Origin: Candidatus Wolfebacteria bacterium
Lineage (GTDB): Bacteria; Patescibacteriota; Minisyncoccia; UBA6257; UBA9933
Direction of reading: 5' to 3'
NCBI GenBank assembly: GCA_024654025.1
Contig: JANLIR010000005.1
Span: forward strand, 1,174-65,173
DNA length: 64,000 nt
Made by a program: the position numbers and the translations under genes. Under the pieces are notes generated by a model. It saw only the letters and a list, made by a program, of their open reading frames with translations, was not told the DNA's origin and made no database searches. This document shows, in pieces, positions 3,191 through 62,211 of this stretch (position 1 is its first letter; each line of letters begins with the position of its first letter).

Positions 3191-3787
3191 CTAAATCCTT
3201 CGCTCTAGCGCTTGTCCGAGCGTGTCTTCATCGGCAAATTCGATTTCTCCGCCGGTCGGTATGCCTCTGCCGAGCCGGGTTATTTTTTTTGACAAACCTT
3301 GCAGTTCTTTGGAAATAAGCAGCGCATTCAAATCTCCATAGGTAGTCGGATTAATGCCGATAATTATTTCATCAATTTGCCCACCTCGATTTTTAATTAA
3401 ATTTTTTAAACTATTAAGCCGTAATTTCTGGGAGCTTTCCAAAACCCCGCTTTTAGTAAGCTCTCCCAAAATCAAATACTTGCCCGGATATTTTTTGGTT
3501 CGTTCAATCGAAATTAAATCCGTTTCTTTTTCGATAATCATCACAACGGTGTTTTTCCTGTTTTTATCTCGGCAAATATTACACAAATTATCGGAATTAG
3601 AGTGGATAAAAAAACACTCGGAACAAATTTTAATATTTTTCAAGTTGCCAACCGCTTTTGACGTTTCTTCAATGTTTGCTTTACCGCTATTTACCAAATG
3701 AAAAGCCAGTCTTGTGGCTTGCCGCGGACCGATTGAGGGCAACTTGGAAAACGTGTCAATAAAAAGTTTGATAGATTCGGGGTACAT
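3191..3787 (-). CDS. recR: recombination protein RecR
   Basis: Helix-hairpin-helix segment LPSIGPRQATRLAFHL, a C4 zinc finger (CSEC...CNIC) and a Toprim-type region. Confidence 0.9.
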   Translation of the reverse strand: MYPESIKLFIDTFSKLPSIGPRQATRLAFHLVNSGKANIEETSKAVGNLKNIKICSECFFIHSNSDNLCNICRDKNRKNTVVMIIEKETDLISIERTKKYPGKYLILGELTKSGVLESSQKLRLNSLKNLIKNRGGQIDEIIIGINPTTYGDLNALLISKELQGLSKKITRLGRGIPTGGEIEFADEDTLGQALERRI

Positions 3788-3790
3788 AAA

Positions 3791-5125
3791 TTAAGAATGA
3801 ATAGACGTTATTTCTTTAAAGCTGGCTTTTTCCGGATCGAATTTAAGCGGAACCGTTCCTAGAGGCCCGTTTCTGTGTTTGGATATTATGATTTCGGCGG
3901 TATTTATTTCTTCAGGCGAAGGATTTAATTTATCGCGATCTTTCCGGTAAATAAACATAACCACATCCGCATCCTGCTCCCAAGAACCCGTTTCACGAAG
4001 ATCCGATAAGCGGGGGATTTTAATTTCCCTTTGGTCCACAGCCCTGTTTAATTGCGATACCGCTAAAACCGGAACGTTTAATTCTTTGGCAAGGGCTTTT
4101 AGTCCATGGCTTATTTCGGTAAATTGTTGGACGATGTTTTCAGAATTGGAACTAGACGTTATTAATTGAACATAATCAATAACAATAAGTCCTAAGCCGT
4201 GTTCCATTTGCATTCTCCGGCCCATTGACCTTAGCTGTAAAAGCGTTGGCGATGGCGTATCGTCTATGATAATCGGCATTGTTGAAAGCCGGTCAAGCGC
4301 TTCGCGGATCATTTCGAATTCAATTTCATCGGTTAACCGCCCGGTTCTTAACCGCCATAAATCAACCTGCGCTTCTGCCGCGATAAGCCTATCAATAATT
4401 TGGTCTTTGGACATTTCTAAAGAAAAAATTGCCACAGGCACGCCGGCTTTTGAAGCGTTTCGGACAAAATCAAGAACAAGCGAGGTTTTTCCCAAGGATG
4501 GCCTTGCTCCTAAAATAATCAAATCGGATTTTTGAAATCCCGAAAGATATTTATCAAGTTCGACAAATCCGCTTGTCACTCCGCGCAACCCCCTTTCTCC
4601 CCGGTTCATTTTTTCGATTCGCTCGTACGCCTCGCTCAAATGTTCTTTGACAAGAGAATAAGTTGGTAAAAGTGATTTTTGGCTGATTGAAAATATTTTT
4701 TGCTCTATTTTGTCCAAAACATTTTCGACATCTTCCTGATTATTGAAGGCTTGTTCGGTAATTTCTCCCGAAACTTGTATTAAGTCGCGCAGTATTTTTT
4801 TCTGATGAACAATTTTTCCATAATGGAAAACATGGGCGCTTGAAGGCACCATATTTATCAAATCGGTAAGATAAGTTGATCCGCCGGCATCAGTAAGCAA
4901 GTTTTTATCTTTCAGTTTATTGGTGACTGTTAAAATATCAATCGGTTCCGATTTTTTGAAAAGCTCTATTATAGCGGCGTAAATCTTTGCGTTAGCCGGC
5001 TGATAAAAATCTTCGGCGGCGATTGAATCCGCCACTTTGATAATGGCGTTTCCGTCTATCATCAGCGCGCCTAATAATGATTTTTCTGCCTCCAAATCTT
5101 GTGGAGGAATTTTTATTATGCTCAT
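3791..5125 (-). CDS. dnaB: replicative DNA helicase DnaB
   Basis: Walker A motif GARPSLGKTSLVLDF and DnaB-like N-terminal and C-terminal domain organisation. Confidence 0.9.
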   Translation of the reverse strand: MSIIKIPPQDLEAEKSLLGALMIDGNAIIKVADSIAAEDFYQPANAKIYAAIIELFKKSEPIDILTVTNKLKDKNLLTDAGGSTYLTDLINMVPSSAHVFHYGKIVHQKKILRDLIQVSGEITEQAFNNQEDVENVLDKIEQKIFSISQKSLLPTYSLVKEHLSEAYERIEKMNRGERGLRGVTSGFVELDKYLSGFQKSDLIILGARPSLGKTSLVLDFVRNASKAGVPVAIFSLEMSKDQIIDRLIAAEAQVDLWRLRTGRLTDEIEFEMIREALDRLSTMPIIIDDTPSPTLLQLRSMGRRMQMEHGLGLIVIDYVQLITSSSNSENIVQQFTEISHGLKALAKELNVPVLAVSQLNRAVDQREIKIPRLSDLRETGSWEQDADVVMFIYRKDRDKLNPSPEEINTAEIIISKHRNGPLGTVPLKFDPEKASFKEITSIHS

Positions 5126-5141
5126 TTTGTAAATTTTAACT

Positions 5142-6518
5142 TCAACGCTTGGTTACGAACGGTCCCAGCGGCGTATCCTTTATTAAGTATCCTAAACGTT
5201 CTATTTTAATTCTCAAGCGGTCGGCGGGGACAAACTGTTTATTTTGCCTCGATAACTGCCTTTCCTGGGCTAATTTCGCTATTTTTAGGGGTATTTCTGT
5301 AGAAGCGTAGTTTATTTCAAATAGTTTTAAAAGCTTGTTTATAGACGTTTTTATCGCTATCGCTTCTTTTTTTGAAAGCTTCCATAATTTGGGGTTTATT
5401 TGGTTTATGAGATTAAAAATTTCTGATAGCGCCTTAGGAGTGTTGAAATCGTCGTCCAGCGCTTTTTTAAAATCATTTTCGAATTTTTCTAATATTTTTT
5501 TTATGTTTGTTCCGCCCTTTTTATTTACGGCGTTTAACTCCACAAATTTTAAAGTTGTTATAAAATCTTCAATATTTTTTAGAGATTTTTTTGCCGACGC
5601 TAAAACTTCATCGTTGTAATTAATAGGGGAACGGTAATGATGGGAAAGCGCAATCATTCTTAAATCGCTGCTGGAATTTTTTTTCAGGAATTCGCGGATA
5701 GTTATAAAATTATTCAAGCTTTTGGACATCTTGTCGCCGTTGATAAGCAAAAAGCCGGTATGCATCCAAATTTTCACGAACGGTTTTTTCCCTGAAGCCG
5801 ATTCTTGTTGGGCTATTTCCGATTCATGATGGGGGAATTTTAAATCGTTTGCTCCGCCATGAATATCGTATTGGGGACCGAAAAATTTTTCGGTTATTGC
5901 CGTATCTTCTATGTGCCAGCCTGGCCTGCCCCAACCCCAAGGCGAATCCCAGCCAATGTTTTCTTTGGTTTCTTTCCAAAGCGCAAAATCAAGCGGATCT
6001 TTTTTTTGCGGGTCTTGTTCAATTCTGTATCCATGCCTTAGTTCGCTTAAATTTTGTTTTGAGAGATTGCCGTAATTAGTGAATTTTTTAACCTGGAAAT
6101 AAACTCCGTTTTTTGTTTCGTAAGCGAAGTTTTTTTTCAAAAGAACGGCGATTTGTTTTTGAATTTCTTTGATATATTTGCTGGCAGGAGCGTATTTATC
6201 AACCGAATTTATATTCAGCGCTTTTATGTCTGTGTAATATTCCTTTTCAAATTGTTTCGCCAGTTTTTCGGGTCTGATATTTTTGTCTTTTGCCCTGTTT
6301 ATGATTTTATCGTCAATATCGGTTATATTTTGCAAATAAAAAACCTTATTTTTTAAAAAACGAAGGTATTTAACAAAACTATCAAATATTATGTAGGTCC
6401 GGGCGTGTCCTATGTGCGAATAATCGTAAACCGTTGGCCCGCAAACAAAAAGCTTAAGGCCGTTTTTTGGTTTTTTTACCGCTATTTTTTTGCCGCTAAG
6501 AGTGTCTAAAATGCGCAT
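5142..6518 (-). CDS. cysS: cysteine--tRNA ligase
   Basis: CGPTVYDYSHIGHAR (HIGH motif) and KMSKSLNNF (KMSKS motif), with the class I aaRS layout. Confidence 0.9.
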   Translation of the reverse strand: MRILDTLSGKKIAVKKPKNGLKLFVCGPTVYDYSHIGHARTYIIFDSFVKYLRFLKNKVFYLQNITDIDDKIINRAKDKNIRPEKLAKQFEKEYYTDIKALNINSVDKYAPASKYIKEIQKQIAVLLKKNFAYETKNGVYFQVKKFTNYGNLSKQNLSELRHGYRIEQDPQKKDPLDFALWKETKENIGWDSPWGWGRPGWHIEDTAITEKFFGPQYDIHGGANDLKFPHHESEIAQQESASGKKPFVKIWMHTGFLLINGDKMSKSLNNFITIREFLKKNSSSDLRMIALSHHYRSPINYNDEVLASAKKSLKNIEDFITTLKFVELNAVNKKGGTNIKKILEKFENDFKKALDDDFNTPKALSEIFNLINQINPKLWKLSKKEAIAIKTSINKLLKLFEINYASTEIPLKIAKLAQERQLSRQNKQFVPADRLRIKIERLGYLIKDTPLGPFVTKR

Positions 6519-6611
6519 GAATAATTATTGAAGGATTATTTAGAGTTTATTTTAAAATTAGCCCTTTCGCAAGCTGGCGCTTTCGCGATTAAATGGTAAA
6601 ATATTTATATT

Positions 6612-7736
6612 ATGGATCAAGATTTGTATCCAATTTTTGTGATTGTGATGGCTTTGCTGTTAGCCGTAGTGTTTGCCGGGCATTATCTTATTTACTATTC
6701 AACAGTTAAATTTTTTTCAGTTGCAACCGCGCAAACAAAAGCGATTTTGGGGCTAGTCCTTTTAGGACTGGCGCTTAGTTTTTTTGTAACGTCAATCCTG
6801 GCCCGTCTAAGCGAAAATTTTGTAACCAGAACGCTTTATTTTTTATCAACTTTATGGCTTGGCGTGGCAACAACACTACTCGCTGTTTTTATCGCCAGTT
6901 GGGTTGTAATTTGGATTTCCAAATACTTTAGCTGGCAGATTAATTTAATTGCTTTAGGCGTTGTGGCTTTAATATTTTCATTCGCGTATTCGGCGTATGG
7001 AATTTGGAACGCGTATAATCCGGTCATAAAAGAAATTACCGTAAACATAAAAAATCTTCCGCCCCAATGGAAAGACAAAAAAGCCGCCCAACTTTCCGAT
7101 GTTCATTTAGGCCACGTTCTAAGAGCCGGGTTTATGCAAAAAGTAGTTGACGAAACTAATGCTCAAAAACCGGACATCATTTTTATTACCGGTGATTTGT
7201 TTGACGGAATGGACGGCGATTTAGCGCAACTCGCAAAGCCTTTAAGTAATATTAAAGCGCCGCTCGGAACTTATTACGTAACCGGGAATCACGAAACTTA
7301 TTTAGGAGTTGAAAATGCTTACTCTGCTTTAAAAACTACTCCTGTCAAAACTTTAAAAGACCAGCTAGTTAATATTGACGGCATGCAAATAATCGGAATT
7401 TCTTATCCTGAACGGGGATTTTCAAAAGACATAGGCCAGGTTATTAAAAATTTAGCATATTTTAATCCGCAAAATCCGTCTATTCTTTTGTGGCACGACC
7501 CCACAAAGATTGACCAGGTAAAACAAGCCGGCGTTAGTCTGCAATTATCCGGGCATACTCATCACGGCCAAATTTTCCCAATTAATCTTGTTTCGCGTTT
7601 AGTATACGGAAAATATTATACCGGCCTTCATCAAGAAGAGAACTACTCGATTTATACTTCAAACGGCGTCGGCGTTTGGGGTCCCACTATGCGCACCGGC
7701 AGTCGTCCGGAAATTGTTATTATAAAATTTAAATAA
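6612..7736 (+). CDS. membrane-anchored calcineurin-like metallophosphoesterase
   Basis: N-terminal transmembrane helices followed by LSDVHLGH...ITGDLFDG...GNHE metallophosphatase motifs. Confidence 0.7.
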   Translation: MDQDLYPIFVIVMALLLAVVFAGHYLIYYSTVKFFSVATAQTKAILGLVLLGLALSFFVTSILARLSENFVTRTLYFLSTLWLGVATTLLAVFIASWVVIWISKYFSWQINLIALGVVALIFSFAYSAYGIWNAYNPVIKEITVNIKNLPPQWKDKKAAQLSDVHLGHVLRAGFMQKVVDETNAQKPDIIFITGDLFDGMDGDLAQLAKPLSNIKAPLGTYYVTGNHETYLGVENAYSALKTTPVKTLKDQLVNIDGMQIIGISYPERGFSKDIGQVIKNLAYFNPQNPSILLWHDPTKIDQVKQAGVSLQLSGHTHHGQIFPINLVSRLVYGKYYTGLHQEENYSIYTSNGVGVWGPTMRTGSRPEIVIIKFK

Positions 7737-8168: not shown

Positions 8169-9767
8169 TTATTTTATAATCGTTGTATAAGACCCTTCTG
8201 GTATCTGATTAATTTGAGAAGGTAATTTGTAATAAATATTTTTTTTAACTTGTTTTTCCGGAGTGAAAGTGTCGGTTATAAACATAACAGTTTGGCTGGG
8301 CATGGGAATACCTCTGACTTCAGCGCCGGATGCTTGAATTATAACGAATTTCGGCCTCTCCGGCGGTAAATTATTTAATTCCCGCCCAATCGCGACATAA
8401 TCAGCCGCGAAAGCGCCCTGAACATTGTGATTTTTGCCCCAGACAATGAAATAATCATAATAAGCGTTAAAAGGAAGAAATATTAAGAATACTACGCTGG
8501 CGGTAAATAAAAATTTTCTAAAAATTCCGTGCTCAAATTCGCCGAAATAATTTTTTAAAAATTCATAAAGCCACACCCCACCGAATCCGGCTAAAATAAA
8601 AACCGGCGGAATCATTATAATTGATCGAAGCGCGTGAGGAATGCCTTCGTTTGAAATTACTACCGGAAGAGAAACAATAGCCAGCGCTGAAAATAAAATC
8701 CAAGAAGAGAATCTGATTGTTTTATCGCGGTCATTTAGCGGCTTTTTAAAAATACCGATAAGACTGAATAAAACGCCAATTAAAAATATTGTTCCCACTG
8801 GCCAAAATAATTGGGGGCTGCCGGAAATATTATGCCGCCAGTTATAATCGCCGACAACGCCAAACATTCCTAAAGTTTTTAGCGTATTAAGCGCCAAGTT
8901 TTTTAACGGCGCTTCAGAGCTAAAAACAGAAACTTGTGAAGTTCTGCCCATAAAATCCGCCGGGTTTTTCAAAAAATGATATCCCAAAGGCGCGAAAGCC
9001 AAAAGAGAAAAAATTGCAAAAACAATAAAAATTTTTACAGTGGCCTTTCTTGATTCTTTATGGGCAAAAAACCACATTCCGAAAACAATTAGAATCAAAA
9101 GCGGCGTGGCTCGATAAGCGATATAGCTGTGCATTCCTAATCCGTAAACAAGGCCTGAAATAATTCCGTACAAAAGCCATTTTTGATTCCGCAGTCCTTT
9201 TAAAAGAAAATACAAAGCCCAGGTTAGGAAAAACGGCGCCATTATCGCTCTAAATCCGATACGCGAAAAATTTATATGCCAAAAACTCGTGGCAATCAGA
9301 AAGGCGCTGAGTAATGCGATTTTTTGGTTCAGCGGAATTATTTTATTTTCTGTTTGTCGTTCGTCGTGCGTAGTTCGTAGTTTTACAAAGAGCTCTTTTG
9401 CCAAAAAATAAACGCCCAAAACCGTAAGTATGCCGAATATAACGCTTACTATTCGAAGCGCCCAAGGTTCATTGCCAAAAGTTTCAATTGAAAGACCCTG
9501 TATGTTTATAAATAATCCCTCGCGTCCATTATTTTCCGGGTAAAAAACTTTCCAATTACCGGTTGAAATTGCTTCCAGCGCGTTGTTGCCGTTCATTGCT
9601 TCGTCCGGATAAAGTCCCGGCGGCAAACTTTTTATGTTGTAAGCCCTGAGAAAACCGGCTATAATTAGTATAACTAGCAATAAAATAAAAGAAAAAGATT
9701 TTTTTCTTCCTTTATTATCCATATAATTTTGATGTAATTTTATATTATGAACGACCAAATTAATCAT
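8169..9767 (-). CDS. PMT_2/ArnT-like (GT39/GT83) membrane glycosyltransferase
   Basis: Polytopic membrane protein with an LYPDEAMNG DE motif in the first loop, which is the family signature. Confidence 0.6.
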   Translation of the reverse strand: MINLVVHNIKLHQNYMDNKGRKKSFSFILLLVILIIAGFLRAYNIKSLPPGLYPDEAMNGNNALEAISTGNWKVFYPENNGREGLFINIQGLSIETFGNEPWALRIVSVIFGILTVLGVYFLAKELFVKLRTTHDERQTENKIIPLNQKIALLSAFLIATSFWHINFSRIGFRAIMAPFFLTWALYFLLKGLRNQKWLLYGIISGLVYGLGMHSYIAYRATPLLILIVFGMWFFAHKESRKATVKIFIVFAIFSLLAFAPLGYHFLKNPADFMGRTSQVSVFSSEAPLKNLALNTLKTLGMFGVVGDYNWRHNISGSPQLFWPVGTIFLIGVLFSLIGIFKKPLNDRDKTIRFSSWILFSALAIVSLPVVISNEGIPHALRSIIMIPPVFILAGFGGVWLYEFLKNYFGEFEHGIFRKFLFTASVVFLIFLPFNAYYDYFIVWGKNHNVQGAFAADYVAIGRELNNLPPERPKFVIIQASGAEVRGIPMPSQTVMFITDTFTPEKQVKKNIYYKLPSQINQIPEGSYTTIIK

Positions 9768-10145
9768 AACATATTAGAGCAGGACATTGAACGTTTAAGC
9801 CGGCAAATCAAAGAAAATAAAAATAACCCGGAGTTTAAAGAAATTTCAGAGAGAGAACTTATAAAACGTTCGCTCGGACCGATTGTTAGAAAACAAATTT
9901 TGGGACAACCGATAGATTTTTCTCCGGCTAAGCCGTTTCAAACGACTGTTTTGCCCAACTATCTCATAGACGCGCCAGATGAAATAAAAATCAAAGTTGA
10001 AAAACTTATTGATATGACTTTTCACCAAGGCATTGAAAAAACAGTTGATGAAGCCCAGAAATTCGGCCCGTTTGTTTTAGACGCATACCATGACGCGTTG
10101 ACCGATAAGCTTCACGCCGAATTAAAAGAACGCAATTTGATTTAA
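9747..10145 (+). CDS. hypothetical protein
   Basis: ORF only; no recognisable motif. Confidence 0.3.
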   Translation: MNDQINHNILEQDIERLSRQIKENKNNPEFKEISERELIKRSLGPIVRKQILGQPIDFSPAKPFQTTVLPNYLIDAPDEIKIKVEKLIDMTFHQGIEKTVDEAQKFGPFVLDAYHDALTDKLHAELKERNLI

Positions 10146-50992: not shown

Positions 50993-51144
50993 AAATAATA
51001 TAAATTATTGCGACTTTGATAATTATAGCACAAATTCATATTTTATTTGACAATGCCAATCAAAAACATTAATTTAAGGACACATTACAGCAAATTCCCA
51101 ATTTAATATACCTAAAAGACAAGAGAAATAAAGGGAGGATTATC

Positions 51145-51969
51145 ATGAATCAATACCTGGATATTGCGCGAGAAATTTTGGAAAACGGCCACCGAAAAAG
51201 CGATCCGCAAGGAGTTGGTAATCGGGCCTTGTGCTCGCCCGGTCCGATACGAATTGATTTAGAAAAGGATGGATTTCCCCTGCTCACAACCAAAGACATG
51301 TCAAAACAGTGGAAACCGCTTATCTGCGAACTGCTATGGTTTCTTTCAGGAAGCACAAACGTTGCCGATTTGCACAAGTACAATATCCATATCTGGGATA
51401 TGTGGGCAACCCCGGAAATCTGTTCTTCTCTCGGCCTTCCAGCTGGAGAGCTTGGACCGATTTACGGCAAACAATGGAGATTTTTTGGTCGAAACGGAAT
51501 TGATCAAATATCCCGGCTCATCAATAACCTTAAGAAAAACCCCGACACCCGGCGAAATGAAATAACCAGTTGGAACCCCGAAGATATTGATAAAGTTTTC
51601 GTAGCCCCGTGCCACGATAATTTCAAGGTTTTTCACGCCGAGGGAATGCTGTGGCTCCGGCAGGACCAAAGAAGTTGCGATTTACCGATAGGCGCGCCTT
51701 TCAATATTGCGCAGTATGCCTTACTACTGATGATGCTTGCGCAAGTAACCGGTCTCAAAGCAAAAGGGCTTATCTATGCCCCGTTTGACTGCCACATCTA
51801 CGAAAACCAAATCAACGCGATGAAACTGCAGATTTCCCGCGAACCTAAAGCTCTCCCTCGTGTAAAGCTGAATCCGGATGTAAAAGACATTTTCAATTTC
51901 CGACCGGATGATTTTATCCTGGAGAATTACGACCCACACCCCGGCATAAAATTCCCAGTGGCGCTGTGA
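51145..51969 (+). CDS. thyA: thymidylate synthase
   Basis: MNQYLDIAREILENG; catalytic APCHDNFKVF; Shine-Dalgarno GGGAGG; GC-rich. Confidence 0.9.
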   Translation: MNQYLDIAREILENGHRKSDPQGVGNRALCSPGPIRIDLEKDGFPLLTTKDMSKQWKPLICELLWFLSGSTNVADLHKYNIHIWDMWATPEICSSLGLPAGELGPIYGKQWRFFGRNGIDQISRLINNLKKNPDTRRNEITSWNPEDIDKVFVAPCHDNFKVFHAEGMLWLRQDQRSCDLPIGAPFNIAQYALLLMMLAQVTGLKAKGLIYAPFDCHIYENQINAMKLQISREPKALPRVKLNPDVKDIFNFRPDDFILENYDPHPGIKFPVAL

Positions 51970-51978
51970 GGTAATGAG

Positions 51979-52515
51979 ATGGCTAAAATTTCGATTGTGG
52001 TCGCAATGGCCTTGAATCGGGTCATCGGCAATAAAGGAGAACTGCCTTGGCATCTGCCAGCGGACCTCAAACACTTTAAGGAACTAACTACTGGCCACTT
52101 CGTTATCATGGGAAGAAAAACATTTGAATCAATTCTCAGACGTCTCGGAAATCCGCTTCCCGACCGCCGAAATGTCGTGATAACCGAAAACCGCGGCTAT
52201 ATAGCTTCTGGTTGTACCGTAGTTCACTCATTTAGAGAAGCATATTGTCTTACCACCAATCTAACAGACCGCAAAGAAGAAGTTTTTGTTATTGGGGGCG
52301 AAAAGATCTACCGACTGACGTTTCCACAAGCCGAGAGAATTTATTTAACACTGGTGGAAGCACATCCTGAAGGCGACGCCTTCTTTCCCGAAATCGACCT
52401 CCAGAAATGGCCAATGATAAGCGCCCAACACCACGAACCGGACGAGAAAAATAAATATCCTTTCACGTTCATGACTCTGGAACGGCTGCGCTGTTGTCCG
52501 CGCGCACTTATCTGA
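51979..52515 (+). CDS. folA: dihydrofolate reductase
   Basis: ISIVVAMALNRVIGNKGELPW; an intrinsic terminator follows at 52548-52585. Confidence 0.9.
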   Translation: MAKISIVVAMALNRVIGNKGELPWHLPADLKHFKELTTGHFVIMGRKTFESILRRLGNPLPDRRNVVITENRGYIASGCTVVHSFREAYCLTTNLTDRKEEVFVIGGEKIYRLTFPQAERIYLTLVEAHPEGDAFFPEIDLQKWPMISAQHHEPDEKNKYPFTFMTLERLRCCPRALI

Positions 52516-52610
52516 CCGGCAATCGCTGGTCGAAATCATACAAACACGGGGATTTCGCGTTTCAAGCGGAATCCCCTTTTTTATTTTTAAATAAGTTTTA
52601 TAATAAATTA

Positions 52611-53042
52611 ATGGAATATGTAAATCCTCGGTTTGCAAAAGGAAACGAATACAAAAAAGTTATTTCTGATATTGTTAGCGAAGGAAAATGTCCGTTTTGC
52701 TCGAAAAATTTTAAATATCATAAAAACCCCGTCCTTAAAAAAGGACCTAGCTGGTTTATAACAAAATCAAGTTGGCCATACAAAAACAGCGAATATCATT
52801 TTCTTATCATCAGCAAAAAACACAAAGATACTTTTAACCAGCTTTCAATAAACGATTTTAAAACCGTTAAAGCTTTGGCTACTTGGGCGATTAAAAAATT
52901 TGATCTTAAGGGTGGCGGATTAATGCTTCGGTTTGGAGATACGAATTATACAGGAGCAACCGTGACTCATTTGCACTTCCATTTAATAACTCCTACGCTA
53001 AAAAACGGCAAATCCGTTCCGGTGAATTTCCCAATCGGATAA
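52611..53042 (+). CDS. HIT-like (histidine triad) family protein (internal start chosen)
   Basis: C-terminal HLHFHLI histidine triad. I start at the ATG at 52611, where composition switches to AT-rich, rather than the ORF start at 52494 inside the folA terminator. Confidence 0.45.
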   Translation: MEYVNPRFAKGNEYKKVISDIVSEGKCPFCSKNFKYHKNPVLKKGPSWFITKSSWPYKNSEYHFLIISKKHKDTFNQLSINDFKTVKALATWAIKKFDLKGGGLMLRFGDTNYTGATVTHLHFHLITPTLKNGKSVPVNFPIG

Positions 53043-53056
53043 TTTTTATAAAAAGT

Positions 53057-53087
53057 CCCCATCGCGCGTGTTGCATGCGCGATGGGG
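53057..53087. terminator. bidirectional terminator hairpin (11-bp stem)
   Basis: CCCCATCGCGC-gtgttgcat-GCGCGATGGGG between convergent genes. Confidence 0.5.
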
Positions 53088-53107
53088 TATCCAAAATTAA
53101 TTTTTGC

Positions 53108-53965
53108 TTACTTCACAAGAACAATCTCCACGCCCGCCTCTTTAAGGACGGCCTCGCCGTCAAGGCTGGCATGTCCTTCAGCAAAATAAAGCTTCCCGAT
53201 TCCGGATGCCATAATCAACTTAGCGCAAACCGGACACGGAAAAACATTCACATAGAGAGACGCGCCTTTAAGTGAAATGCCTTCCCGAGCCGACCAGGCG
53301 ATAACGTCCTGTTCCGAATGAATCGCGGAACAAAGTTCGCTGCGCTCCCCTGCCTTCACGAAATCACGAGGATCGCCAACCATATAGGGCTGATATTCTG
53401 TCGGCACGTGACGGTTATGAGCGCTATAAACAACTTGCCCATTTTTTACCACGACTGATCCGACCTGCCTCCACCAATCAGACGTTTTCTCGGCCTCTCC
53501 TTTTGCCAAAGCCATTATTTTTCGATCAAACTCTCCCGTCGTTACCCGGTCATAATTAACCGGGGTTTGCGAAAAAATCGAAGCTCGGTCCCAGCGAAGA
53601 AACGCGGTATCATACTCGACCGGTTGACCAGGAAAATATTTATTGACGACGGCTCGACATAATTCGTCACGAGTAGTTATAATTCCACAACCTTTTAGTA
53701 AGCTAAGAATCTTTAAGTTAGCCCGACTCAAAGTAAATACCTCAACCTGCAATCTGCTCCCAAAATCCAACATTTCCTCGACAGTTTTTGGATCAAGAGC
53801 TCGAATTTCTTTTCTATCGCAAAATTCATTTATAAAATCTTCGCCTACGATACAGAGCGCTTCAATTTCTTTCTGATATTTTTCGATAAGTCGCAAATAT
53901 CCAGCGTGGATAACCGGAATATAAAGAAGAAGTATTTTCTCCATTATGCTTCTCCCTTCACACAA
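53108..53965 (-). CDS. dCMP/cytidine deaminase domain fused to an N-terminal degenerate HxGH nucleotidyltransferase-like domain
   Basis: C-terminal HSEQDVI...PCPVCAKLI is the CDA zinc site. N-terminal YIPVIHAGYLRLI resembles the HxGH box of the adjacent gene. Confidence 0.65.
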   Translation of the reverse strand: MCEGRSIMEKILLLYIPVIHAGYLRLIEKYQKEIEALCIVGEDFINEFCDRKEIRALDPKTVEEMLDFGSRLQVEVFTLSRANLKILSLLKGCGIITTRDELCRAVVNKYFPGQPVEYDTAFLRWDRASIFSQTPVNYDRVTTGEFDRKIMALAKGEAEKTSDWWRQVGSVVVKNGQVVYSAHNRHVPTEYQPYMVGDPRDFVKAGERSELCSAIHSEQDVIAWSAREGISLKGASLYVNVFPCPVCAKLIMASGIGKLYFAEGHASLDGEAVLKEAGVEIVLVK

Positions 53966-54509
53966 GTCCGCTTTTTTTCATAAACTCGGCCATCGGGGCC
54001 AAAAAATCTTTCATGGCCTTATGAAACAGGCTGGAACTGCTGGTTTCAGCTTGACGAGACAATACAACCACTTCTCCGCATCGCTCGCGAATTTGGTTGA
54101 GTTGATCTTCCGGATAAGAATCGGTCACGGCAATAAAAACGTTCGGCCGAATACAATCCAAAAGGCCGTATTGCCATTTACCGTCATCCGTCACATCATC
54201 CACCACTGTGGCAAAGTTGACGCACTCCTGATAACTCAACATTTCAAGACGCTCGATTTGGGGATTTAATGGCCGGTACGGACCTTTGTAAAGTTTAATG
54301 GCCCGGTCAGAATCCGCTCCGACAACAAGGATATCGCCGTGTTCTCTCGCCTTTAGCAAGTAACGAACGTGCCCGACATGCAGTTGATCCCAACTCCCGA
54401 TTGTGCAGATGATCTTGTGCTCAAGCTCCTGATACGCCTTGCAAAGCTTCGCGAGCTTGTCATAATCCAGCACGATTTTCTTGGCATAATCAATAGTATT
54501 CGTAGACAT
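53958..54509 (-). CDS. cytidylyltransferase-like (HxGH) nucleotidyltransferase
   Basis: GSWDQLHVGHVRYL HxGH motif; Shine-Dalgarno AGGAGG; GC-rich. Confidence 0.6.
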   Translation of the reverse strand: MSTNTIDYAKKIVLDYDKLAKLCKAYQELEHKIICTIGSWDQLHVGHVRYLLKAREHGDILVVGADSDRAIKLYKGPYRPLNPQIERLEMLSYQECVNFATVVDDVTDDGKWQYGLLDCIRPNVFIAVTDSYPEDQLNQIRERCGEVVVLSRQAETSSSSLFHKAMKDFLAPMAEFMKKSGLV

Positions 54510-54672
54510 TGGACAATCCTCCTGTGGAATATGAGATTAAATTCTTTATTCACTTCTTAAAAATCTGACCAATTCTAATCACGAATAGACCCCAAAGTCA
54601 AAAATTTTTCTGGCAAAAGAAAAAGGGGCTTTGCGAGCCCCTTGTGATTCCGCGGCCTATGGCCGAAAAATT

Positions 54673-55206
54673 TCAGTCCGTATCTTCTTTCATTCGTTCC
54701 GCGTTGACCCGGCTTTGGCCTTCATTCCAAAACCGTTCCTTGAGATATCGGAAAAACTCGATTCCTTGTCTAATGCTGTCTTTCTCTACTCTTTCAAAAT
54801 TCCCTTTTCTTGTCATCTCGACAGTGTCAAATATCGGTTTGAAATGCATCCAGCATGCGGGGTTTATTATAATTCCTTTCGGCCTCAACTCATTTGCAAG
54901 ATAGTGATACGCGCAATGCACCAAGTAACACATTAATGAATATTCTTGACCGAGTGTGAATTTAACCGGAGGAAAATCCGGATCCAGTTCGCGCCCCTTG
55001 GAGGTTACGAACTTCATATCGCCAATGATCTTTTTCATATCCTCTGCCGCAATTCCCAAAATGCGATTATCCTCATCGGACAACCTATTTTTAGGGTTTG
55101 AAGCCACTGAGAGAATGCCGGCGGCCCGACCAAAAATAATCGCCCTGTCCATCAAAATAATGCCTTTCACCGGAATATAATTTTGGCATGTCCTCATGTC
55201 AGGCAT
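54673..55206 (-). CDS. hypothetical protein (GC-rich island)
   Basis: ORF followed by the terminator GGGGCT-ttgcg-AGCCCC plus U-run at 54613-54643. Confidence 0.35.
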   Translation of the reverse strand: MPDMRTCQNYIPVKGIILMDRAIIFGRAAGILSVASNPKNRLSDEDNRILGIAAEDMKKIIGDMKFVTSKGRELDPDFPPVKFTLGQEYSLMCYLVHCAYHYLANELRPKGIIINPACWMHFKPIFDTVEMTRKGNFERVEKDSIRQGIEFFRYLKERFWNEGQSRVNAERMKEDTD

Positions 55207-55265
55207 TCCTCCATGTTCTTTTTTTATTTGCTGATTTCAAGATAAATAAACACTTGACCAAAGTC

Positions 55266-55302
55266 AACCAAAAACCGCTCCGATCTAAATCGGAGCGGTT
55301 TT
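55266..55302 (-). terminator. groEL intrinsic terminator
   Basis: AAACCGCUCCGAU-cuaa-AUCGGAGCGGUUU followed by UUUUUGG on the minus strand. Confidence 0.6.
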
Positions 55303-55350
55303 GATATTGCGTAATAATAACTTTTTAATTCGTGTGAGTGCGTTCGTATG

Positions 55351-57003
55351 CTAGTACTCCTCCCCCATCATCGGATTATGGCCATGAGATTCTTTTTCTT
55401 TTTCAGGAAGTTTGGCAATTGCCGCGCCGATTGTAAGATAAGTGCTCGCAACCGAAACTGCGTTTATAAACGCGGTTTTGGTAACCTTAAGCGGATCAAT
55501 CACTCCGGCGTCTTTCAAATTTTCTATCTTATTGTTAAAAGAATTAAAACCCACCCAATCGCTTTTTTCCTGTTTCTTATGAATCATCAATTCCCTCACA
55601 ATAACCGGCGTAAGCTCTCCGCTATTGTCTATAATTGCCTTTAAAGGCGCACGGACAGCCTTTAAAATAATTTCCATTACGGCTTTGTCAACTTCCTTTT
55701 CGTGTTCCAAAACCGATCCAACGTTTTCCAGGTTAGCAACATTAAACAACGCTATTCCGCCTCCGGGAACAATTCCCTCTTCCATTGCGGCTTTAGTCGA
55801 GTTAACCGCGTCTTCCACTCTTTGTTTTAATTCTTTTTGCGCGGATTCGGTCGGCGCTCCAACTTTCATCACCGCCACGCCTCCGGAAAGTTTTCCCAGC
55901 CGTTCTTGTAATTTTTCCCTATCGAATTCCGAATCGGTTTTTTCCAATTGATTTTTTATCTGTAAAATCCGTTTATCAATAGTTTCTTTATTGCCTTTTC
56001 CTCCGACAATCGTTGTGTTGTCTTTATTGGCGATTACCCGATGCGCCTGACCCAGAGAACTCACATCAACACTGTCCAGTTTTTTTCCGATATCTTCAGA
56101 GATAAATTCCGCTCCGGTAACCGTGGCAATATCTTCCAACATCTCTTTTTTTCTGTCTCCAAATCCCGGAGCTTTAACAGCCAAAACATTTAAAATTCCG
56201 CGAAGTTTGTTAACCACAAGCGTTGCTAGCGCCTCGCCTTCAACATCATCAGCAATAATAACCAATTCTTTTTTGCCGTTTTTGATTATTTTTTCCAAAA
56301 GCGGTAAAAGCTCGCTAATTGAAGAAATCTTTTTATCGGCAACCAAAATATACGGGTCTTCCAAAACCGCTTCCATCCGTTCAGGATTAGTCATCATATA
56401 AGCGGAAACATAACCGCGATCAAAACGAAGTCCTTCGACAACTTCATAAGAAAGCCCCACAGCGTTGGAATCTTCTACCGTAATTACGCCTTCTTTTTTA
56501 ACTTTGTCCATCACTTCGGCAATAAGTTTTCCCACTTCTTTGTCTTTTGCCGAAAGAGTGGCAACCTCTTCAATGTCTTTATTGCTCTCAACGGGAATTT
56601 TTTGAGCTTCAAGGGCTTTTACAACCGCTTCGCTTCTTGTTTTAAGGCGTTCCGCTAATCTGATTACGTTAAACCCCTTTTCACGAATTGCTTTTTCTCC
56701 CTCGTCAATCATCGCGTGCGCCAAAACAACGGCGGTCGTGGTACCGTCTCCAACATCATCATTAGTTTTAGAAGCCGCTTGTTTTATAAGTTCGGCTCCT
56801 AAATTCTCATATTTATCTTCAAGCTCGATCTCTTTAGCAACGGTTACTCCGTCAAAAGTTACTTGCGGCGCGCCGTACGCTTTTTCAATAACAACTGCCC
56901 GGCCGCGCGGACCCAAAGTCATTCGTACCGCTTCAGCTAATTTATCAATGCCTTTTTTTATTGCCGCCCTGGCTTTTTCATCAAATAAAATTTGTTTTGC
57001 CAT
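55351..57003 (-). CDS. groL: chaperonin GroEL
   Basis: Full-length Cpn60 with a Met/Gly-rich C-terminus. Confidence 0.95.
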   Translation of the reverse strand: MAKQILFDEKARAAIKKGIDKLAEAVRMTLGPRGRAVVIEKAYGAPQVTFDGVTVAKEIELEDKYENLGAELIKQAASKTNDDVGDGTTTAVVLAHAMIDEGEKAIREKGFNVIRLAERLKTRSEAVVKALEAQKIPVESNKDIEEVATLSAKDKEVGKLIAEVMDKVKKEGVITVEDSNAVGLSYEVVEGLRFDRGYVSAYMMTNPERMEAVLEDPYILVADKKISSISELLPLLEKIIKNGKKELVIIADDVEGEALATLVVNKLRGILNVLAVKAPGFGDRKKEMLEDIATVTGAEFISEDIGKKLDSVDVSSLGQAHRVIANKDNTTIVGGKGNKETIDKRILQIKNQLEKTDSEFDREKLQERLGKLSGGVAVMKVGAPTESAQKELKQRVEDAVNSTKAAMEEGIVPGGGIALFNVANLENVGSVLEHEKEVDKAVMEIILKAVRAPLKAIIDNSGELTPVIVRELMIHKKQEKSDWVGFNSFNNKIENLKDAGVIDPLKVTKTAFINAVSVASTYLTIGAAIAKLPEKEKESHGHNPMMGEEY

Positions 57004-57485: not shown

Positions 57486-57905
57486 TTAGCCAACAGCTGT
57501 CAATTCAGGAAAGATTTCCTGGATGGCTTTCTCAATATCCCCCAAAGAAAATGGCTTTGACAAAAACGCGTCGGCGTTGGACCTTGTAAACGCCGCCCCA
57601 TCATGCGTGTATGTAGGAGGATAAAGTCCGCTCATCAGTATTGTTGCTACATTTCCATTGCTGAATTCCTTCACGCCCCAGACCAATACGTCTCCGGTAA
57701 TTCCAGGCATTTCGTAATCCGAAATGACCAGGTCCGGGTAAGAATTAAACTGAGCTTGCTTTAGAAAATCCGCCAAAGCTTTAAGCGGGTCTGAAAATGC
57801 AATGGGCCGATGACCGAGTTCCCTTAGTAAGGCCTTCACCATCATCAAAACCTCTTCCTTGTCATCAACAACATACACCAAAAGACTTTTTTTCATCTCT
57901 CTCAC
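57486..57905 (-). CDS. response regulator, receiver domain only
   Basis: Segments VVDD, ISDYEMPG and the lysine in LSKP match CheY-like receivers. A terminator follows at 57441-57464. Confidence 0.75.
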   Translation of the reverse strand: MREMKKSLLVYVVDDKEEVLMMVKALLRELGHRPIAFSDPLKALADFLKQAQFNSYPDLVISDYEMPGITGDVLVWGVKEFSNGNVATILMSGLYPPTYTHDGAAFTRSNADAFLSKPFSLGDIEKAIQEIFPELTAVG

Positions 57906-61416: not shown

Positions 61417-62211
61417 TTAATTTATTTTATTAGTTAATTCGACTATTTTTTTAAATTCTTTTGCATTTAGACTCGCGCCACCGACCAAAGCGCCGTCAAT
61501 CTCGTTATGCTGTAAAAACCCTTTAATATTTTTGCTATCCACCGAGCCGCCATATAATACTCTAGGAGTTAGTAGTTGGTAATTAGTAATTAGTAGTTTT
61601 TTAATATATTTAATTGTTTCCAGGGCGGTTTCAGGGGTTGCCGAAATGCCGGTGCCTATCGCCCAAATCGGTTCGTAAGCAATAATCAATTTATTGCTCA
61701 ATAATTTTCCTTTTAAACCCTTTAAATCTTTCTGTAATTGATTTTTAACAAAATCCATTGCGGCTTTTTTGCCTTTTTTTCTAATTTCTAACGGCTCCCC
61801 CACGCAAAGAATCACTTTTAAACTCTCTTTTAACGCGGCTATAACTTTTTTGTTTATCATCTCGTCGGTTTCAGCCGCATATTTACGACGTTCAGAATGG
61901 CCGATTATGGCGTAATCCACGTACAAATCTTTAAGCATCTTCGGCGAAATCTCACCGGTGTAAGCCCCTTCAGTCGCCCAAAAAATATTTTGGGCTCCAA
62001 TTTTCAATTTTATCTGCCCCGTAGCAAGCGTGCTTTGCTTCGGGGAATTTTTAATTTTTAATAATTCGGATAAATAAATAAACGGAGGAACGATTACAAT
62101 TTCCGCATTTTTTGCTTGTAGTCTGTAGTTTGTAGTAGCTGAAAAAAGCTCTTTGGCTTTTTTCAGCGTCGGCGGGTTCATCTTCCAGTTGGCAATAATA
62201 AGTTTTTTCAT
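61417..62211 (-). CDS. tpiA: triosephosphate isomerase
   Basis: IIANWKMN, IGHSERR and GGASL motifs. The gene contains two in-frame heptad-repeat insertions. Confidence 0.9.
   Translation of the reverse strand: MKKLIIANWKMNPPTLKKAKELFSATTNYRLQAKNAEIVIVPPFIYLSELLKIKNSPKQSTLATGQIKLKIGAQNIFWATEGAYTGEISPKMLKDLYVDYAIIGHSERRKYAAETDEMINKKVIAALKESLKVILCVGEPLEIRKKGKKAAMDFVKNQLQKDLKGLKGKLLSNKLIIAYEPIWAIGTGISATPETALETIKYIKKLLITNYQLLTPRVLYGGSVDSKNIKGFLQHNEIDGALVGGASLNAKEFKKIVELTNKIN
61567..61597 (-). repeat. degenerate heptad repeat (ACTACTA ATTACTA ATTACCA ACTACTA, in sense orientation) inside tpiA
   Basis: Direct reading; encodes LLITNYQLLT. Confidence 0.7.
62113..62135 (-). repeat. heptad repeat (CTACAAA CTACAGA CTACAAG, in sense orientation) inside tpiA
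   Basis: Direct reading; encodes ATTNYRLQA. Confidence 0.8.

Follow-up and report, generated by a model that had tools for sequence, protein, structure and literature searches.

Described systems close to the locus considered here include the cellular pathway of thyA and folA with a dCMP deaminase of the ComEB or T4 cd type, and the td, frd and cd genes of T4-type phages, which provide the same three functions. A further one is DcdV of Vibrio cholerae, where an N-terminal P-loop kinase is joined to a C-terminal DCD domain; this protein deaminates dCMP and dCTP, a precedent for funnelling dCTP to dUMP. The locus lies in a window (the whole stretch analysed) of 64,000 nt from a Candidatus Wolfebacteria bacterium (contig JANLIR010000005.1). 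It comprises genes for thymidylate synthase (thyA), dihydrofolate reductase (folA; DHFR), a HIT-family protein, a nucleotidyltransferase (NTase) and a dCMP deaminase fused to an extra N-terminal domain (NTD). We consider it likely that the region is a thymidylate-synthesis locus native to the lineage, widely conserved and placed in a cassette-swapping slot, with the NTase, the NTD and the HIT protein tied to the pathway. Its features, in window positions, are as follows.

51054..54541, no strand: replaceable cassette of 3,488 bp, thyA-folA-HIT convergent with NTase-deaminase, delimited by blastn breakpoints against the relative L007
51145..51969, plus strand: thyA, thymidylate synthase, 274 aa, GGGAGG 6 nt upstream
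51979..52515, plus strand: folA, dihydrofolate reductase, 178 aa, 9 nt past thyA, weak GAGG site
52611..53042, plus strand: HIT-family protein, 143 aa (CPFC ... HLHFHLI ... NFPIG), AT-rich, without a Shine-Dalgarno (SD) site
53108..53539, minus strand: dCMP-deaminase domain of the fusion, about residues 136-278, Pfam dCMP_cyt_deam_1 (PF00383) at 57.7 bits
53540..53944, minus strand: NTase-like NTD, residues 1-135 of the fusion, motifs PV[IL]HxGY, EIRA and FLRWD
53958..54509, minus strand: cytidylyltransferase-like NTase, 183 aa, HVGH and KGPYRPLNPQIER, AGGAGG 8 nt upstream

The locus shares with the cellular pathway a ThyA, a DHFR_1 protein, a zinc deaminase with HxE and PCxxC motifs, and the close spacing of thyA and folA. 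It differs in a deaminase that carries an NTase-like N-domain of ~135 residues and lacks the G[YW]NG motif, and in the near-obligate presence of the NTase and HIT genes. ThyA matches Pfam Thymidylat_synt (PF00303) with 288 bits against a cut-off of 24.3 and passes the TIGR03284 equivalog (265.7 against 108.35), and DHFR matches DHFR_1 (PF00186) with 203 bits against 25, over profile positions 1-159 of 159. With the deaminase, all three enzymes lie above family cut-offs, as the initial annotation had read them. The ThyA translation carries PCH (VAPCHD), QRSCD (QRSCDL) and PFNIA (APFNIAQYA) motifs, which we take, by comparison with the E. coli and L. casei enzymes, to supply the catalytic Cys (PCH), the RSxD element and the Asn (PFNIA) that selects dUMP rather than dCMP.

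Family membership establishes a predicted enzymology of the canonical kind: the deaminase would convert dCMP to dUMP, ThyA would methylate dUMP to dTMP, yielding dihydrofolate, and DHFR would return dihydrofolate to tetrahydrofolate. The idea of a non-canonical nucleotide or DNA-modification pathway, raised initially, fits poorly with a ThyA above its equivalog cut-off and with the co-occurring DHFR, which argues for canonical reductive methylation. Nothing indicates DNA hypermodification, which is neither supported nor strictly excluded.

The cluster is conserved well beyond this genome. When one genome from each GTDB species was scanned, at least 548 species had the fused deaminase, and neighbourhoods were taken from the best 80 loci (6 kb on either side, some loci incomplete; loci carry L numbers below). 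The NTase adjoins the fusion in 79 of the 80 and a HIT gene lies near it in 77; ThyA is found in 69, with a divergent Thymidylat_synt-family gene in four more (73 in total), and DHFR in 51. The cluster is also repeatedly accompanied by nusG-rplK, GlyA-like, FolD, Dut and Tmk genes. The rest of the window, searched for ThyX, Dut, Tmk, GlyA and FolD, yielded none of them. The NTase/HIT pair was also considered as a Dut or Tmk substitute and rejected, given that Dut and Tmk each adjoin the cluster in 15 loci.

Loci L001, L003, L005 and L006 hold the cluster in four different genomic contexts, with the NTase gene ahead of the fusion gene, in many cases overlapping it by 4 bp, and both convergent with ThyA, DHFR and a HIT orthologue of ~150 residues. 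The complete cluster is also found in a cultured actinomycete, Actinocorallia libanotica JCM 10696 (L060, NZ_BAAAHH010000008.1, 3425-6798), at that locus's native 68% GC, and an uncultured Actinomycetota metagenome-assembled genome (MAG), L080, carries it as well. The five-gene cluster is thus a conserved feature across Patescibacteria that some Actinomycetota also have. The earlier suggestion that the extra NTase-like genes belong with the dTMP genes is borne out by this near-constant linkage and by domain fusions.

In loci without canonical ThyA and DHFR, a divergent Thymidylat_synt-family protein of 263-277 residues lies by the HIT gene. These proteins score 35-45 bits, over the C-terminal half only, and L012 additionally carries an HD_3/YfbR-like 5'-deoxynucleotidase.

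L012:7442-8269: divergent Thymidylat_synt-family gene
L013:7354-8172: divergent Thymidylat_synt-family gene
L016:4378-5211: divergent Thymidylat_synt-family gene
L027:7362-8153: divergent Thymidylat_synt-family gene

The deaminase gene starts at a corrected ATG, 53944, giving 278 residues identical to an NCBI 'Candidatus Wolfebacteria' protein. The Pfam deaminase match spans residues 146-262, and the best PDB matches to this domain are T4 cd and the dCD of cyanophage S-TIM5. Across 116 homologues, the zinc and catalytic residues of HxE and PCxxC (H209, E211, P236, C237, C240) never vary. The G[YW]NG motif for allosteric control by dCTP and dTTP, as defined in the DcdV preprint (10.1101/2021.03.31.437871), is lost: the window has A-H-N-R, the family [ASGE][HY]N[RKHQ], and the last Gly is never present among the 116 homologues.

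The loss of this motif invites comparison with DcdV, where a nucleotide-handling N-domain is likewise fused to a DCD with a degenerated allosteric motif. On this parallel, and on partial matches to the PADLOC dCTP-deaminase model (E 5e-17) and the NCBIfam antiphage_deaminase model (59 bits), the protein could be read as a DcdV-like anti-phage defence enzyme that depletes dC nucleotides. However, those matches span ~55 residues around the zinc motif, and the 59 bits fall far below the 400-bit cut-off of NF041025. The N-domain has a HIGH-nucleotidyltransferase fold instead of the P-loop kinase of DcdV, the protein is 278 residues long against 532, and this deaminase sits among housekeeping thymidylate genes and not in a defence island. 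Its constant linkage to ThyA, DHFR, GlyA, FolD and Tmk, often in the nusG-rplK core region, points to a housekeeping role and leaves the defence reading with scarcely any credibility.

The NTD itself gave no match over residues 1-140 in a Pfam and NCBIfam scan. Its AlphaFold2 model (pLDDT 86.9-89.9) is a five-stranded Rossmann-like fold whose top Foldseek matches in the PDB are the Fom1 CyTase, NMNAT, PPAT, GCT and HldC (E 5.6e-3, probability 0.97-1.0, TM-score about 0.5). The modelled fold is thus predicted to be of the HIGH-superfamily nucleotidyltransferase kind. The motif reads HxGY instead of HxGH, the second His being replaced by Tyr in at least 90% of members. This agrees with the initial description of a deaminase fused to a degenerate HxGH domain. 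Derivation of the NTD from the NTase as a recent paralogue was rejected, hhalign being non-significant in two attempts (probability 3.6% in one of them).

Degenerate as the HxGH motif is, the domain does not appear from its sequence to be decaying; PV[IL]HxGY, EIRA and FLRWD show little or no variation among homologues. The NTD profile, searched against 1.84 billion representatives, returned 584 matches, almost all of them deaminase fusions of 270-300 residues; the domain therefore exists essentially only fused to this deaminase. An NTD-only alignment was too variable to seed a genome scan. The fusion is 61% identical to its orthologue at L001:8001-8852, while its neighbours reach 84-96%; the differences fall mainly in NTD residues 21-100, away from its conserved motifs.

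The stand-alone NTase gene ends 13 nt before the deaminase start. Its product matches Pfam CTP_transf_like (PF01467) with 43.2 bits against a cut-off of 21 and keeps an intact HVGH, so that the initial reading of a bona fide HxGH cytidylyltransferase-like gene beside the deaminase holds. With GCT, CCT, ECT and HldC of the same Pfam family it shares HxGH (H44, G46 and H47 invariant in its own family), KGxxRP...ER and an (S/T)-rich C-terminal motif. The profile of its family finds ECT at 3e-28, HldC at 1e-25 and then CCT and GCT, down to 1e-13. It differs from these enzymes in falling under every NCBIfam equivalog cut-off, including TIGR02199 for the heptose-1-P adenylyltransferase rfaE_dom_II/HldC (90.1 bits against 181.5). 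Its partner, too, is a dCMP deaminase and not lipid, teichoic-acid or LPS genes.

The HIT gene starts at a corrected ATG, 52611, past the folA terminator. Its product matches Pfam HIT (PF01230) with 27.6 bits against 21.5, as do 42 of 46 family members, and C27, P28, C30, H71, H120 and H122 are invariant in the family, with the triad HLHFHLI. Orthologues occupy the same position in L001, L003, L005 and L006. The gene had been described as an AT-rich interruption of the block; it is AT-rich (GC 0.350; GC at third codon positions, GC3, 0.319), but it interrupts nothing, being a core member in 77 of the 80 loci. A TATAAT lies 6 nt ahead of the ATG, and the gene looks leaderless. In three Patescibacteria lineages, namely Ca. 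Wolfebacteria GW2011_GWB1_47_1, a Kazan bacterium and a WWE3 bacterium, DHFR and HIT form one polypeptide of 314-327 residues, encoded by these open reading frames.

L034:6903-7886, minus strand: DHFR-HIT fusion
L040:6892-7836, minus strand: DHFR-HIT fusion
L079:6859-7815, minus strand: DHFR-HIT fusion

A second HIT paralogue adjoins the first in about 15-20 of loci L012-L091 (for instance L014:6977-7570, L035:6910-7485 and L052:3008-3463), and some of these second copies have a degenerate histidine triad, such as HLHVNFQ in L085.

These data bear on whether the NTase and the HIT protein are unrelated passengers, serving for example CDP-alcohol or sugar-nucleotide metabolism for the envelope. 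Such a role could be read from the best named matches of the NTase (heptose-1-P adenylyltransferase, ECT, CCT and GCT), from the generic nucleotide hydrolase character of HIT proteins and from a GtrA-family gene nearby. Yet the adjacency in 79 (NTase) and 77 (HIT) of the 80 loci persists across many flanking contexts, and the NTase and deaminase genes overlap by 4 bp or sit 13 nt apart. Moreover, the deaminase carries a fused NTase-like domain, DHFR occurs fused with HIT, and NTase, HIT and DHFR are jointly lost in ThyX cassettes, all of which makes passenger status quite improbable.

The initial annotation had seen the region as a phage-style module, possibly acquired horizontally. A T4-like td/frd/cd island, with its extra NTase genes devoted to non-canonical nucleotides or DNA hypermodification, would agree with the existence of PHROG families for ThyA, DHFR, dCMP deaminase and heptose-type NTase. 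It would agree as well with a phage-like IMG/VR contig, L092 (IMGVR_UViG_3300037483_001116, 158 kb, 62% GC), where an NTase and NTD-deaminase pair at 5444-6810, without HIT or ThyA, adjoins two phrog_14775 glycosyltransferases and methyltransferase-like genes. The fusion and ThyA were compared with phages by tblastn against 50,697 phage records, a BFVD fold search and an IMG/VR scan. The two-domain deaminase is absent from the 50,697 records, where the best matches cover its C-terminal third only, at 34-40% identity to T4-like cd; phage cd lacks the NTD, and BFVD structures match the deaminase domain alone.

The best phage ThyA is 48% identical, while the nearest named homologues are all from Patescibacteria, at 55-62%, so phage proteins are not the nearest relatives. 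The L092 pair is the single viral occurrence in IMG/VR, against the at least 548 bacterial species. At the borders, a search for mobile-element signs turned up neither an integrase nor a neighbouring tRNA, flanking att-like direct repeats did not exceed chance, and an Rfam check was also empty; the only tRNAs in the window are at 17.9 and 25.8 kb. The flanks encode SecA, S30AE, GtrA, LemA, GroEL/ES, a response regulator and RmuC, with no phage genes among them. Together with the canonical ThyA and the dihydrofolate production that DHFR implies, these results largely refute a phage origin, which we regard as very improbable.

Further evidence for a native locus comes from distant relatives. The order groEL, NTase, deaminase, HIT (then DHFR and ThyA) recurs in L034 and L016, with GroEL 58-66% identical. 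In a neighbour-joining tree without bootstraps, ThyA of the window and L001 (92% identical to each other) is sister to that of L034, Ca. Wolfebacteria GW2011_GWB1_47_1. In another, built from concatenated NTase, fusion and HIT, the window stands beside another Wolfebacteria MAG, the other of these two genomes; in both, the cluster directly follows groEL, as in the window. Both trees place the window with Wolfebacteria, an outcome set beforehand as refuting the horizontal acquisition first supposed; a recent acquisition is not supported. The cassette is 83-86% identical to L001 as DNA, matching its flanks (78-83%).

A lateral event is nevertheless visible, in the closest relative found and not in the window's island. 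Locus L007 shares the same flanks and the same orphan gene downstream of groEL, with SecA 95%, GroEL 98% and LemA 95% identical. Instead of the window's cassette it has a slot of 2,587 bp with a 453-aa ThyX, a 161-aa dCMP deaminase and a P-loop kinase. The breakpoints by blastn are 51053/51054 and 54541/54542, between flanks 95-98% identical as protein and 86-90% as DNA. The breakpoint at 54541/54542 lies just upstream of the NTase SD, so a promoter-like TTGACT-18-TAGAAT is common to the window and L007.

54572..54601, minus strand: promoter-like TTGACT-18-TAGAAT upstream of the NTase gene, within the stretch that still shares homology with L007, the relative carrying ThyX

An independent contig, L009, runs from the orphan through the short deaminase and the kinase to LemA. 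In L007 and L009 the ThyX cassettes contain the short deaminase and lack NTase, HIT and DHFR. In the L007 swap the NTase, HIT, DHFR and NTD are all missing together with ThyA; they therefore come and go with ThyA. The slot is a recombination hot spot. ThyX proteins usually have about half the length of the 453 residues in L007, where the protein (8682-10043) contains two Thy1-matching stretches and its gene has a GC of 0.473 and a GGAGG leader.

The sporadic, transfer-prone distribution of ThyA and ThyX is well documented (PMC5954106), and here too close relatives carry either ThyA with DHFR or ThyX. This case differs in being caught in situ, with base-level breakpoints between flanks of 86-90% DNA identity, and in the accessory genes that move as well (NTase, HIT and long deaminase against kinase and short deaminase). 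Elsewhere in L007, a 1.96-kb AT-rich insertion (460-2419) between SIMPL and an M48 peptidase, absent from the window, contains a PDDEXK_4 nuclease-family gene and two small open reading frames. The triose-phosphate isomerase of the window (61417-62211, minus strand) is 62% identical to that of L001 while its neighbours reach about 88-94%, and may be another locally replaced gene.

The block was first noticed for its composition, and a compositionally and translationally distinct block does exist. The window has 38.6% GC overall (standard deviation of 1-kb windows 2.75%), with a 1-kb peak of 46.8% at 51501-52500 and a top single 500-bp window of 49.4%. Against 58 background genes (GC 0.383 ± 0.031, GC3 0.369 ± 0.049), the raised genes lie at 43-47% GC: thyA 0.469 (GC3 0.502, z +2.7), folA 0.467 (0.458), the deaminase gene 0.453 (0.419), the NTase gene 0.473 (0.527; z +2.9 for GC and +3.3 for GC3) and the orphan reading frame of 174/177 residues 0.434 (0.486). 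The jump initially given as 35% to 50% is thus real as a rise, though its measured size is from ~38% to ~46%. GC-rich codons as a mark of high expression were ruled out by the GC3 of GroEL (0.377), GroES (0.281) and BipA (0.412).

Ribosome-binding sites give a sharper signal than GC. A GGAGG lies 6-10 nt 5' of thyA, the NTase gene and the orphan (ATG 55197), which make up three of the four GGAGG-led starts in the window. One of the 53 other genes has such a leader, and that one falls within a hairpin (Fisher test, p = 0.002 for GGAGG, p = 0.0003 for any SD core). Of the strong sites claimed for all five GC-rich genes, those of thyA, the NTase gene and the orphan stand, while folA (GTGAGG) and the deaminase gene (AAGGGAGAAG) have partial ones. 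Nearly all genes in the window are SD-less, with AT-rich leaders, and SD use seems limited to a few GC-richer genes. A stand-alone response-regulator gene (57486-57905, minus strand) is also GC-rich (0.452, GC3 0.479) and has a purine-rich SD-like leader in L001 and L007.

The GC-rich intrinsic terminators noted at first were likewise found, at the four places below, although the count of hairpin and T-run patterns across the region shows no excess (6 against 5.5 in shuffles).

52548-52576, plus strand: intrinsic-terminator-like hairpin after folA, 11 bp stem with 7 G-C pairs, T-run
53057-53087, no strand: bidirectional hairpin, GC-rich, where the HIT and deaminase genes converge; inverted repeat I18 with 14-nt arms, 93% complementary
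54623-54643, minus strand: terminator-like hairpin after the orphan gene
55271-55302: GC-rich hairpin with a T-run

This signature could mean that the cluster came by lateral transfer from a Patescibacterium, and not from a phage, whose genome is richer in GC and uses SD sites. It would have entered through homologous replacement, with groEL and lemA as flanks, and would not yet have ameliorated. The GC3 values (+1 to +3.3 standard deviations over background) and the confinement of GGAGG leaders to these genes fit such a gain, as does a slot that demonstrably exchanges cassettes. Cluster-bearing Patescibacteria of 48-51% GC exist, thyA transfer into groundwater Patescibacteria has been reported (PMC12455944), and ThyA and ThyX are generally prone to transfer (PMC5954106). 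Against it, distant Wolfebacteria have the cluster at the same groEL-proximal position and group with the window in the trees, the divergence from L001 equals that of the flanks, and beyond the subclade no ThyA in the databases comes closer than 62% identity. The GC3 excess over flanks is also found in L001 and in the 50% GC locus L034; the signature therefore travels with the module and is not a mark of recent arrival. The excess is a lasting property of the module in this class, and transfer of this kind is unlikely.

The fifth GC-rich gene had been taken as part of the module, as an unknown 177-aa protein.

54673..55197, minus strand: orphan protein, 174 aa (177 aa from ATG 55206), with its own GGAGG and terminator

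Translation probably starts at ATG 55197, giving the 174 residues of its homologues. These number only nine, each just downstream of groEL, and searches of Pfam, NCBIfam, PHROGs, PADLOC and PDB profiles returned no match. The gene is absent from L001 and from 80 of 80 cluster loci, and the unit 54604-55351 is a separate indel relative to L001 by blastn. It is thus an independently variable orphan that comes and goes beside groEL, and not a member of the cluster.

Several points weigh against the account of a native locus with tied accessory enzymes. The trees have no bootstrap support, and the deep identities are saturated at 45-62%. Homology of the NTD with NTases is non-significant by profile comparison (the probability of 3.6% given above) and rests on modest Foldseek scores. 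Literature searches gave no description of the five-gene arrangement, and neither an experiment nor a published account of the role of the NTase, HIT or NTD. Dut and a DCD-family (dCTP-deaminase-like) gene lie near some clusters, so that an extra route from dCTP to dUMP is not obviously needed. In this lineage only HIT has a host-like composition. For the persistent GC3 and SD signature there is no explanation beyond a guess, GC-biased gene conversion in a slot prone to recombination.

With the region taken, as we prefer, for a native thymidylate locus, its accessory enzymes may be placed as follows. Cytidylyltransferases convert (d)CTP into (d)CDP-X, and HIT enzymes free nucleoside monophosphates from nucleotidyl conjugates via a His-nucleotidyl intermediate. 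The loss of G[YW]NG, the nucleotide-binding fold of the NTD and this cytidylyltransferase and HIT chemistry together lead to the proposal that these three parts supply the dCMP/dUMP pool with cytosine deoxynucleotides or control their entry into it, perhaps while assembled in a complex. The fusions of NTD with deaminase and of DHFR with HIT possibly reflect such a physical association. The putative NTase-deaminase operon, convergent on the thyA-folA unit with the HIT gene behind it, would have stood directly downstream of groEL since before Wolfebacteria diversified, keeping its higher GC3 and SD leaders in an AT-rich, SD-poor genome.

In one conceivable route, the NTase would form dCDP-X from dCTP and X-P, and the NTD-deaminase would bind or deaminate the conjugate, or bind dCTP itself. 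HIT would then free dCMP or dUMP via its His-nucleotidyl intermediate, so that dUMP could reach ThyA without free dUTP. Alternatively, the NTD may have taken over nucleotide sensing from the lost G[YW]NG site, or may dock the NTase in its place. The feeding or gating role, drawn by analogy from family mechanisms, is the weakest part of the account, and the specific nucleotidyl-transfer branch through dCDP-X is itself doubtful.

Thymidylate synthesis is essential and a drug target, and it is one of the few biosynthetic abilities that the ultra-small Patescibacteria have retained. The exchange of ThyA and DHFR for ThyX between near-identical flanks is an unusually clean case of non-homologous gene displacement, and it illustrates that a GC and SD "island" signature can mark a recombination-prone native locus instead of foreign DNA. 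Hundreds of species link two uncharacterised nucleotide-handling enzymes and an extra deaminase domain to the pathway, a link backed by fusions, which suggests that dTMP supply involves a step or control point so far missed. If true, the dCDP-X branch would answer how cells that depend here on dCMP deaminase obtain their substrate from dCTP. The complete cluster in cultured Actinocorallia libanotica JCM 10696 makes these proposals experimentally testable.

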